DNA of 64,000 nucleotides, taken from the NCBI RefSeq assembly GCF_003790525.1, contig NZ_CP033635.1. One strand, given 5' to 3'. Numbering within the stretch: the stretch's first letter is position 1; each line of letters opens with the position of its first letter. Under the pieces are notes generated by a model. It saw only the letters and a list, made by a program, of their open reading frames with translations, had not been told where the DNA came from and did no database searches. This DNA comes from Escherichia coli (GTDB taxonomy: Bacteria > Pseudomonadota > Gammaproteobacteria > Enterobacterales > Enterobacteriaceae). The translations under genes and the position numbers were made by a program. This document shows positions 2,614 through 4,994 of this stretch, in pieces.

Positions 2614-2751
2614 TATTGTGGCATTTTTCGGTTTTCAGGGGTAATGGTTTTTCTGTTTCTGGAAAGCGGCTCGCAATAACGTTTTCTGGCTGTGGGGTTT
2701 TCTCGCAACAGAAGAAACATCATTGCGTAGTAAAAGACAATGCACGCAGGC

Positions 2752-3033
2752 TTATTGCGCTGGTGGCCATTGCAGGGCGGTATGTAAAACACGCAGTACC
2801 GAGAGCGTATCGCCCTCCACTTGGTAGATCAGCACATAATGCGGCCTGACAACGGCTTCATGTGTACCAGCGACTCGTCCGGCCCGGTACATCTCCGGGC
2901 GTTCACAGGCCTGTTCCGCAATGGCTTCAAATTGATTATCAAGGGCTATTGCCGCTAGCGGATTATCTTTACTGATGTATTCCATGATTTGCTCCCTGTC
3001 AGACAGGGACATTGGCTTCCATTCCAGACGCAT
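2752..3033 (-). CDS. Type II toxin, ParE/RelE superfamily (93 aa)
   Basis: MRLEWKPMSLSDREQIMEYISKDNPLAAIA...HYVLIYQVEGDTLSVLRVLHTALQWP has the length and conserved pattern of ParE/RelE toxins; its ATG overlaps the stop of the upstream ORF by 1 nt (TAATG). Confidence 0.8.
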   Translation of the reverse strand: MRLEWKPMSLSDREQIMEYISKDNPLAAIALDNQFEAIAEQACERPEMYRAGRVAGTHEAVVRPHYVLIYQVEGDTLSVLRVLHTALQWPPAQ

Positions 3034-3473
3034 TAATCCCCCTTCAGCAAGGCTTTTTTACGGGCAGCAAATAGACTTTTGGCCTCTTCATGAGAGAGCG
3101 CCGGGCGTGGATCGTCAATGGCGGCCTGTACCTGTTCACGAAACCAGGCGTCATACGCGGCAGCTTCATGAGCTCGTTTTAATGCCTCTGCCCTGTCTGG
3201 TCGGGTCGTTTTCTTCTGACCGTCCGGGTCGTAATGAGAGGCGTCGACTTCAAACCGGGCAATACCAACATCTTTCAGGTAGTTGACAACCGTTTCCAGC
3301 CGTTTAAACAAGCGAATTTGCCGACTGCGTTGTGCTGCAAGAGGCCGTTCAGTGTGGCCGTATTTCACGGTCAACGACCAGCCTCCCTGGGTGCCAATAA
3401 CGTGTGCTGCATCCACTACGCCAGATTCAACCAGTTTATGTAAGGTTGAGTGATCGATCGTTTCTGGTGCCAT
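3033..3473 (-). CDS. Putative cognate antitoxin (146 aa) with a ParD/PaaA2-like C-terminal tail and an unassigned N-terminal domain
   Basis: ATG start with AAGAGG ribosome-binding site 8 nt upstream; C-terminal ...YDAWFREQVQAAIDDPRPALSHEEAKSLFAARKKALLKGD resembles the W-x-R...DPRPA tail of ParD/PaaA2-type antitoxins (from memory); translationally coupled to the toxin. Confidence 0.65.
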   Translation of the reverse strand: MAPETIDHSTLHKLVESGVVDAAHVIGTQGGWSLTVKYGHTERPLAAQRSRQIRLFKRLETVVNYLKDVGIARFEVDASHYDPDGQKKTTRPDRAEALKRAHEAAAYDAWFREQVQAAIDDPRPALSHEEAKSLFAARKKALLKGD

Positions 3474-3501
3474 AATGCGCTAACCTCTTTGTATACGGCA
3501 T

Positions 3502-3563
3502 GCAATTTATAATTAAAGATAGCGCAATTAATAATAAATTGCAGCACCTTAATCGTAAATTGC
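3502..3563 (-). promoter_or_regulatory. Putative promoter/operator of the toxin-antitoxin cassette: repeated GCAATT/AATTGC hexamers and a 13-bp imperfect inverted repeat
   Basis: gcaatttataatt (3502-3514) pairs 12/13 with aataataaattgc (3530-3542); further GCAATT at 3524-3529 and AATTGC at 3558-3563; AT-rich; 30-90 nt upstream of the antitoxin ATG. Confidence 0.45.
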
Positions 3564-3604
3564 CCAGGATAAAATTGCGGTAGAAAGAGATTTGTTGCGA
3601 ATAT

Positions 3605-3621
3605 GCCGGGCATCGCCCGGC
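3605..3621 (-). terminator. Hairpin just downstream of rhlE stop (7-bp GC stem, 3-nt loop); possible terminator
   Basis: gccgggc-atc-gcccggc located 9 nt after the rhlE stop codon; no strong U-tract. Confidence 0.35.
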
Positions 3622-3629
3622 ATAAAAGA

Positions 3630-4994
3630 TTACTGCGCAGCGGCAGGTTTACGCGGACGGCGACGGCGTTGTTGTTCGCCTGCCGGTTTGGCATCACCAA
3701 GACGACGAGATGTTTTTTCTGCGGGCTTCGCGCTAGCTGATTTCGCACCACCTTCTCCACGGCGTGGTTGCTGTTGACCGCGACCACCACCTTGCCCACG
3801 ACCGCCGCCGCCACGTTGCTGGCGACCGTTCTGGATCGGTTCGGCTTTGATTGACGGGTCCGGCTCATAACCCGGAATCGCAATGCGCGGGATCTCTTTT
3901 TTCAGCAGTTTTTCGATATCACGCAGCAGTTTGTGTTCATCAACACACACCAGCGACAACGCTTCACCGGTAGCAGCCGCACGACCGGTACGCCCGATAC
4001 GGTGGACATAATCTTCCGGTACGTTTGGCAGTTCATAGTTGACCACGTGCGGCAGCTCTTCAATATCCAGGCCGCGCGCAGCGATGTCAGTTGCCACCAG
4101 TACACGAATATCGCCCGATTTAAAATCAGCCAGCGCACGGGTACGCGCACCTTGCGATTTATTGCCGTGGATCGCCGCACTGCGGATGCCATCTTTATTA
4201 AGCTGTTCAGCCAGATGGTTAGCGCCATGTTTGGTACGGGTAAACACCAGCACCTGCTGCCAGTTCCCTTTCCCAATCATATGCGACAGCAATTCGCGTT
4301 TGCGTTTCTTATCGACAAAGTGAACGTGCTGGGTCACCTGATCAGACGCAGTATTGCGGCGTGCCACTTCGATTTCCAGCGGGTTGTGCAACAGTTTTTC
4401 CGCCAGGGCTTTAATATCGTCAGAGAAGGTCGCGGAGAACAACAGGTTCTGGCGCTTCGCTGGCAGTTTTGTTAACACGCGACGGATATCGTGGATAAAG
4501 CCCATGTCGAGCATGCGGTCAGCTTCATCAAGGACGAGGATTTCAACCTGATCCAGCTTCACTGCATTTTGATGTTCCAGGTCCAGCAGACGTCCCGGCG
4601 TTGCCACCAGCACATCAACGCCGCCGCGCAACTTCATCATTTGTGGGTTAATGCTGACACCGCCAAACACCACCAGCGAACGAATGTTCAGGTATTTGCT
4701 GTAATCACGGACGTTTTCGCCAATCTGCGCCGCCAGTTCACGGGTCGGGGTAAGAATGAGCGCACGTACCGGACGACGCCCTTTGGCGTGCGGCTGGCGA
4801 GTGATCAGGTGTTGCAACAGCGGCAGCGTAAAGCCCGCTGTTTTGCCGGTGCCGGTCTGGGCGCTGGCCATCAGGTCGCGGCCTTCCAACACCGCAGGGA
4901 TCGCCTGCTGCTGAATAGGGGTGGGTTCACGGTAACCCTGCTCGGCAACGGCGCGCAGGATATCAGGGCTTAAACCCAAAGAATCGAAAGACAT
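3630..4994 (-). CDS. rhlE: ATP-dependent RNA helicase RhlE (DEAD-box, 454 aa)
   Basis: ORF track 454 aa, [33 protein letters not shown]..., Gly/Arg-rich C-terminus. Confidence 0.96.

Follow-up and report, generated by a model that had tools for sequence, protein, structure and literature searches.

What do the inverted repeats upstream of a small toxin-antitoxin cassette do, and which protein reads them? We addressed this question in a 64,000-nucleotide stretch of Escherichia coli DNA (hereafter the window), where a two-gene cassette with a ParE-type toxin lies between dinG and rhlE and a cluster of repeats at 3502-3563 precedes the antitoxin gene. A sequence-only reading had described this cluster as an autoregulatory operator array built of hexamers. 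In our comparison with relatives from other genera, the conservation of 3524-3542 supported an operator but not a hexamer array. We consider it likely that 3502-3563 is the autoregulatory operator of the cassette, and its functional unit appears to be a 19-bp palindrome of the form GCAA-N11-TTGC plus one half-site 22 bp downstream.

A palindrome travels with the antitoxin family

The sole instance of GCAA-N11-TTGC in the window is the core palindrome, which consists of the half-sites R4 and R3 (Table 1). We compiled 78 loci encoding relatives of the antitoxin (46-98% identity), with one genome per species, and 68 of them could be analysed. A strict GCAA-N11-TTGC was present within 200 nt 5′ of the antitoxin homologue in 47 of the 68 loci, beginning 48-80 nt before the start codon with a single exception (139 nt; locus L030), and most of the other loci carried a variant one base off in the same place. 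The upstream regions, 13.5 kb in total, contained 48 matches to the motif, compared with 10 in the remaining 316.6 kb of the loci. The hosts were Escherichia, Erwinia, Pantoea, Serratia, Xenorhabdus, Photorhabdus, Pseudomonas, Chromobacterium, several β-proteobacteria and a Rhizobiales bacterium, so that the motif spans the γ-, β- and α-proteobacteria; it was found on both chromosomes and plasmids. In 64 of 65 loci, a toxin homologue in the same orientation followed directly 3′. The sequence around the palindrome was unrelated between clades (enterics, two Pseudomonas groups, β-proteobacteria, Rhizobiales and Chromobacterium), and a palindrome held at a near-fixed distance within unrelated flanks is what is expected for the operator of a self-regulated cassette. 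The motif was absent from distant homologues (at most 47% identity). In Photorhabdus cinerea and P. heterorhabditis (L013 and L074), an element of about 90 bp (…gagcatagcgaactatgtgaccggggtgagcga…) is inserted at about 150 to 30 nt 5′ of the antitoxin gene; it separates this gene from the operator-like sequence and shifts the operator from its usual distance.

A third half-site in the same orientation, located 22-23 nt from the inner one, was found in Escherichia, Erwinia, Pantoea, Serratia, Xenorhabdus, a Klebsiella plasmid and Chromobacterium, and its spacing was constant across these genera even though the bases in between differed. Most family members outside the Enterobacterales have one palindrome only. 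The palindrome and the third half-site are thus conserved cis-elements that travel with the antitoxin family.

In 36 distinct palindromes, positions 1-4 and 8 were almost invariant, with one base-pair type on both arms. The right arm TTGC (positions 16-19) was conserved like the left (33-35 of 36 for positions 1, 2 and 4; 29 of 36 for position 3), and position 6/14 switched symmetrically, being C-G in 14 palindromes and T-A in 15. Positions 5, 7 and 9 were frequently non-complementary (11/36, 17/36 and 21/36 for the inner stem positions). This pattern of conservation fits a symmetric site for a dimeric protein, rather than a hairpin or a sigma-70 spacer.

Table 1. Features of the cassette and of its upstream region, in window coordinates.
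Feature	Position	Strand	Description
Core palindrome (R4+R3)	3524..3542		19 bp, 9-1-9; GCAATTAATAATAAATTGC = GCAATTAAT-A-ATAAATTGC; form GCAA-N11-TTGC
Downstream half-site R5	3502..3516 (10-nt half-site 3502-3511)	+	GCAATTTATAATTAA; closest half-site to the antitoxin gene
Upstream half-site R2	3549..3563 (10-nt half-site 3554-3563)	-	GCAATTTACGATTAA; weak, not conserved; 21 bp from R3
Fifth GCAATT copy R1	3564..3578	-	GCAATTTTATCCTGG; poor half-site fit
Candidate promoter, homology-based	3516..3544	-	-35 CTGCAA (3544..3539, left half-site), 17 nt, -10 TATCTT (3521..3516)
Candidate promoter, alternative	3531..3559	-	-35 TTTACG (3559..3554, inside R2), 17 nt, -10 TATTAT (3536..3531, palindrome centre)
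Antitoxin gene	3033..3473	-	146 aa; residues 1-~85 ParC-like (PF28031); ~100-146 PaaA2-like, predicted toxin-neutralising
Toxin gene	2752..3033	-	93 aa; ParE/RelE superfamily; 1-nt overlap with the antitoxin stop codon
Whole cassette	2681..3602	-	922 bp, two genes; blastn breakpoints against K-12 at 2680/2681 and 3602/3603
rhlE terminator hairpin	3602..3624	-	10-nt arms, 100% complementary, TATGCCGGGC / GCCCGGCATA; host sequence shared with K-12

The N-terminal domain of the antitoxin is the presumed DNA-binding module

The two genes of the cassette are adjacent, co-oriented and overlapping by 1 nt, the arrangement of a type II toxin-antitoxin system. The toxin passes the RelE/StbE subfamily model TIGR02385 (38.3 bits; cut-off, 27.9); its nearest solved relative in a Protein Data Bank (PDB) search is ParE2 of E. 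coli O157 (5cw7, E 1.2e-6), and PF05016 is assigned to the toxin of an 86%-identical relative. The C-terminus of the antitoxin corresponds to the PaaA2 "stability determinant" motif (PF21217, residues 104-130, E 4.2e-10), and a PDB search with the family profile matched the PaaA2 chains 5czf_A and 3zbe_A (E ~1e-7). The N-terminal domain (N-domain) matched nothing in that search, in which the PaaA2 part alone was hit. Residues 6-83 span all 80 positions of the NF041544 ParC model (E 4e-8), but at 32.7 bits do not reach its curated cut-off of 95 bits; stand-alone relatives score 34-40 bits. By these scores, the N-domain is best regarded as a distant relative of the NF041544 family, and not as a member. 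We found no described function for the NF041544 ParC family. The Pfam entry PF28031 ("ParC-like") is precomputed on the 99%-identical protein P0001 and on nearly all listed homologues, and is flagged "weak" on the 86% relative. Database names within the family are "hypothetical protein", "stability determinant domain-containing protein" and "antitoxin PaaA2 family protein", and searches of a phage collection and of PHROGs gave weak, uninformative matches only.

At 50% identity, about 400 clusters make up the N-domain family, in which the domain is either fused to a PaaA2-like tail (~145-160 aa) or alone (~80-120 aa); stand-alone ParC-like proteins of ~80-110 aa are found on small plasmids. We modelled the N-domain with AlphaFold2 from an alignment of 73 sequences; the model had a predicted local distance difference test score (pLDDT) of 93.7 and superseded a full-length antitoxin model with a pLDDT of 70. 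It has the order α-β-β-β-α-β, and among solved structures its closest folds are those of eL38 and of the periplasmic domain of FtsH. Neither Pfam nor NCBIfam yielded a ribbon-helix-helix profile match to the antitoxin, and together with the modelled topology this led us to reject a ribbon-helix-helix N-domain. ParC of the IncP-9 plasmid NAH7 was likewise rejected as a characterised relative (hhalign probability 0.3%, no NCBIfam match). On NAH7 (L093, 2016-2468), parC encodes a 150-aa protein that is unrelated to the ParC-like domain, and the shared name is misleading; the findings on ParC in PMC12421886 are therefore not applicable here.

As the antitoxin has no recognised DNA-binding domain, the uncharacterised N-domain is the presumed DNA-binding module. 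The PaaA2 antitoxin of E. coli O157 also lacks a DNA-binding domain, and is regulated by a separate third gene, paaR2 (PMC8630535). Since O157 PaaA2 needs PaaR2, the extra domain fused to the antitoxin of the cassette is a natural candidate for the regulator. The most conserved basic stretch of the antitoxin, RPLAAQRSRQIRLFKR (residues 43-58), is the likely DNA contact surface.

Loci in which the N-domain stands alone bear on this assignment. Two unrelated stand-alone N-domain genes, with neither a PaaA2 part nor a ParE, have the strict motif upstream, one at -73 (L083, encoding 89 aa and found on small plasmids of E. coli and Aeromonas) and the other at -46 (L098, an 83-aa protein whose gene adjoins a Gp49/HTH_37 pair). 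We estimate that, for eight fixed bases, about 0.003 matches are expected by chance per 200-nt upstream region. Given the absence of the motif from four stand-alone loci as well as from distant homologues, it belongs to the clade above about 50% identity and to some stand-alone members. More distant fused homologues have, at about -60, palindromes with the 9-1-9 layout but another sequence (CCAAATTATCGTTATTTGG in Polaromonas, ACACTTTTTAGAAAAGTGT in Shinella), as expected if specificity co-evolves with the protein. On balance, we favour, with moderate confidence, the view that PF28031 represents a class of sequence-specific DNA-binding domain that had so far escaped recognition. With an α-β-β-β-α-β fold nearest to that of the ribosomal protein eL38, it would read the 9-1-9 site GCAA-N11-TTGC and serve as a repressor, fused to the antitoxin in a widespread two-gene PaaA2/ParE toxin-antitoxin family and as a protein by itself on small plasmids.

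Two of these loci have further features. On the Shinella plasmid (L091), the region about 90 to 25 nt 5′ of the antitoxin homologue reads TTGCATAGTG … ACACTTTTTAGAAAAGTGT … CACTATGCAA, a palindrome within a palindrome as in the window, with unrelated sequence. On the metagenomic contig SRR13258545_25757 (L098, 332-1283), the ParC-like gene with its motif is followed by genes for Gp49 (HigB-like) and HTH_37. From this layout, other toxin-antitoxin pairs may also be regulated by the ParC-like domain, as a separate protein.

An operator could also have a reader other than the N-domain: a transcription factor of the host, or the toxin-antitoxin complex, by way of its PaaA2-like or linker region. 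Comparison of the modelled N-domain with solved structures did not find a known DNA-binding fold, which gives some room for this idea, and so does the fact that the palindrome shares the 9-1-9 geometry of the Fur box, to which it matches at 11 of 19 positions. However, the motif follows the gene through α-, β- and γ-proteobacteria and plasmids, so that a host factor would have to be universal, and no second GCAA-N11-TTGC was found in the 64-kb window. Other readers are also disfavoured by the motif at stand-alone genes that lack the PaaA2 part and ParE, and O157 PaaA2 alone does not bind DNA (PMC8630535). A different reader is accordingly unlikely. The Fur box itself was rejected, because the bases conserved in the family are GCAA/TTGC and not the GATAAT/ATTATC of Fur.

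The palindrome overlaps both candidate promoters

Two promoters can be assigned upstream of the antitoxin gene (Table 1). The first was placed by homology: in non-enteric relatives, the left half-site supplies TTGCAA, a good -35 box, followed after 16 nt by TAnnAT directly behind the palindrome. By this assignment, the palindrome would fill the -35 box and spacer, and the start site would fall inside R5. The alternative was found by a consensus scan alone; it matches the consensus at 9 of 12 positions and is not generalisable to the Pseudomonas relatives. Under both assignments, the palindrome overlaps core promoter elements.

This overlap raises the question of whether the palindrome is mainly a promoter, TTGCAA serving as the -35 box beside A+T-rich DNA with no dedicated repressor, and whether the E. 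coli repeats are by-products of 22-bp tandem duplication. TTGCAA does resemble TTGACA and precedes TAnnAT by 16-17 nt in most relatives; R5 is a direct repeat of R4 at 22 bp, and spontaneous duplication of this unit is seen in E. coli GF43. Yet the right arm of the palindrome is as conserved as the left and lies within the spacer, where sigma-70 imposes no sequence, and the symmetric variation at position 6/14 affects both arms. The constant spacing of the third half-site in genera that differ in the intervening bases also goes against this reading. We regard a promoter without an operator as improbable.

The duplication in GF43 (L095, NZ_CP172127.1) is a 22-bp tandem copy of ATTATTAATTGCGCTATCTTTA inside the operator (window 3502-3542), which adds one further ATTGC half-site at 22-bp spacing. 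R4 and R5 likewise repeat directly at 22 bp, which suggests that the array expands through duplication of this unit.

Anatomy of the repeats

The region between the antitoxin start codon and the rhlE terminator hairpin is 129 bp long (3474-3602). In it, GCAATT occurs on the + strand at 3502 and 3524, and AATTGC at 3537 and 3558, exactly where the sequence-only reading had placed them; its count of four has to be raised to five, because a further AATTGC is present at 3573-3578. The five copies fall within 77 bp; the four placed by the sequence-only reading lie 29-90 nt 5′ of the antitoxin ATG at 3473 (- strand). A repeat finder showed that longer units end in the hexamers and form direct repeats at spacings of 22 bp and 21 bp. 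The 13-bp inverted repeat described earlier was also recovered, gcaatttataatt (3502-3514) and aataataaattgc (3530-3542) being complementary at 12 of 13 positions, and it lengthens to 16 nt at 94% (3501-3516 / 3528-3543). The description of the palindromes as nested was likewise accurate: the outer pair (3502-3516 / 3549-3563) is 87% complementary, and its centre lies within 0.5 bp of that of the inner palindrome. Read along the coding (-) strand, the order is R1 GCAATTTTATCC (from 3578), R2 GCAATTTACGATTAA (from 3563, including the -35 candidate TTTACG), the R3/R4 palindrome and R5 TTAATTATAAATTGC (3516 to 3502), followed by 28 nt with AGAGG and then the ATG.

The individual half-sites differ in strength and stability. 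We derived a 10-nt half-site matrix, GCAAT[C/T][A/T]A[T/C][A/T] (maximum, 14.3 bits), from other genera only, Escherichia being excluded. R3, R4 and R5 each scored 13.7 bits, R2 scored 9.5 and R1 less than 7. R5 did not vary among the E. coli alleles examined, and E. whittamii and the 86% relative have it unchanged. The R2 hexamer is changed to ACAATT in GF43 and to AGAATT in E. whittamii and is absent from the 86%-identical relative (L085), which also lacks the R1 hexamer present in the Escherichia alleles. Through the palindrome and on to the ATG, the E. whittamii sequence does not differ from that of the window, but upstream of the palindrome it diverges. The major allele in E. coli, carried by 252 of the 324 genomes, has five differences in the 129 bp, none of them within the 10-nt half-sites. 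The hexamers at 3558 and 3573 are thus weak and evolutionarily unstable, and at most auxiliary.

Could nested inverted repeats of this kind act as nucleic-acid structure, be it an RNA hairpin in the 5′ untranslated region, a cruciform, or the end of a recombination or mobile element? For the - strand of 3474-3600, the folding energy is -32.2 kcal/mol (z = -3.5 relative to shuffles), and the cassette is an insertion. Against such a role, the inner stem positions are often unpaired in relatives, and the outer positions are conserved in sequence, with no covariation. Moreover, the palindrome would be incompletely transcribed under either promoter assignment, and its distance to the start codon is kept in unrelated genomic contexts. 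No attC core sites (GTTRRRY / RYYYAAC) were found in 3474-3629, the ends of the cassette carry no terminal inverted repeats (they agree at 13 of 40 positions), and no target-site duplication is present at the insert junctions. These absences led us to reject an integron attC site or a mobile-element end, and a structural role is on the whole very unlikely.

The same region was compared with shuffled sequence. GCAATT occurs at 55 sites in the whole window, both strands counted. Five copies of GCAATT were reached in none of 20,000 dinucleotide-preserving shuffles of the 129 bp; when any hexamer was allowed, which corrects for its choice after the fact, 1.4% of shuffles contained five copies, so that the hexamer count by itself is only moderately convincing. 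With the Escherichia-independent matrix, the 129 bp contained 3 sites of at least 10 bits (16 in the whole window, these 3 included), a number equalled by 2 of 5,000 shuffles, and 4 sites of at least 8 bits, equalled by 3 of 5,000. That the cluster arose by chance in A+T-rich intergenic DNA, to which the any-hexamer frequency alone lends some weight, is hardly credible given the shuffles for GCAATT and for the matrix and a palindrome kept across genera: chance is ruled out for the palindrome and R5, and is possible for the copies at 3558 and 3573 taken alone.

A model of autoregulation

The reading that we favour, an autoregulatory operator, can be put as follows. A dimer of the antitoxin would bind the palindrome through its N-terminal ParC-like domains. 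The palindrome would cover the -35 box and spacer of the promoter (or the -10 box, by the alternative assignment) and the downstream half-site the start-site region, so that occupancy would exclude RNA polymerase. In enterics, R5 and perhaps R2, spaced at 21-22 bp, would recruit more dimers to the same face of the helix. The C-terminal PaaA2-like helices would meanwhile hold the ParE-type toxin. As in other type II systems, the extent to which the extra half-sites are occupied would probably depend on the toxin:antitoxin ratio, through higher-order complexes in which dimers are bridged.

Several observations weigh against this model. Of the 6 stand-alone N-domain loci, 4 are without GCAA-N11-TTGC. 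Many of the 68 loci come from closely related Pseudomonas, which brings the independent observations nearer to 36 palindromes and about 8 clades. The homology-based promoter fits only 7 of 12 consensus positions in the window and competes with an alternative that fits 9 of 12. Finally, a literature search found no publication on the antitoxin, the locus or the PF28031 domain.

The cassette in E. coli chromosomes

The gene order in the window is dinG (431-2581, - strand), the two small genes, rhlE (3630-4994, - strand), cecR and ybhG/F. The cassette stands between dinG and rhlE in place of K-12 ybiA, which encodes an N-glycosidase, and of the neighbouring repetitive extragenic palindromic (REP) sequences. 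Homology to K-12 ends at 2680 and restarts at 3603; the entire 129-bp upstream region with its repeats therefore came in together with the two genes, which are the only ones in the insert. The earlier view of a self-contained cassette holds in this sense. The exact right-hand boundary of the insert is the rhlE terminator hairpin, which differs from K-12 by one loop base and insulates the cassette promoter from rhlE.

Of 5,426 complete E. coli genomes, 324 carry the cassette, every time on the chromosome, and it is also annotated in SMS-3-5; nearly all the other complete genomes matched the flanks only. It is thus a marker of a variable E. coli locus next to dinG.

The cassette lies directly upstream of the SOS gene dinG and in the same orientation. 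About 66 nt past the cassette end (2681) is TATTGGCTGTTTATACAGTA (2596-2615, - strand), the non-canonical LexA (SOS) box of dinG. We found no convincing terminator 3′ of the toxin gene. With the cassette co-oriented and TATTGGCTGTTTATACAGTA so close to its end, transcriptional read-through from the toxin gene into dinG is conceivable.

Comparison with known toxin-antitoxin systems

Promoter-overlapping operators are standard in type II toxin-antitoxin systems. In geometry only, the region resembles the operator arrays of relBE, phd-doc and ccdAB, where half-sites lie on one helical face (21-22 bp) around a promoter-overlapping palindrome; by analogy, the antitoxin C-terminus would bind a toxin that could bridge DNA-bound dimers. 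A likeness to ParD-ParE and CopA(SO)-ParE(SO) is also probable, in that the N-terminal part of the antitoxin would sit on inverted repeats in the promoter and a disordered or helical C-terminus would neutralise ParE. CopA(SO) binds two GTANTAC repeats (PMC8706911). Unlike the ParD and CopA antitoxins, the N-domain of the cassette is predicted not to be ribbon-helix-helix, and the sequence and 9-1-9 geometry of the operator differ.

The closest system is paaR2-paaA2-parE2 of the O157:H7 prophage CP-933P (PDB 3zbe, 5cw7, 5cze, 5czf), which has a similar toxin, a PaaA2 that corresponds to the C-terminus of our antitoxin, and the same order of antitoxin before toxin gene. O157 PaaA2 is about 70 aa long (71 residues in the 3zbe chain), whereas the antitoxin of the cassette has an extra N-domain of ~85 aa. 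The binding sites of PaaR2 are 18-bp GTTTAGTAA-type repeats in a lambdoid immunity region (PMC8630535). Unlike this three-gene system, the cassette has two genes, no paaR2 and the operator GCAA-N11-TTGC.

The element itself is thus probably an ordinary type II toxin-antitoxin operator, and it is the DNA-binding domain that is probably new. The variant appears to be a two-gene PaaA2/ParE module in which the role of the regulator is taken by a fused, uncharacterised domain with a family-wide DNA motif. The comparison gives the PF28031 family a concrete predicted function and a predicted DNA target, GCAA-N11-TTGC. If the prediction is correct, a new fold would join the DNA-binding domains of antitoxins (ribbon-helix-helix, helix-turn-helix, AbrB/SpoVT and Phd/YefM), and the logic of the three-gene paaR2-paaA2-parE2 system would be achievable in two genes through domain fusion.

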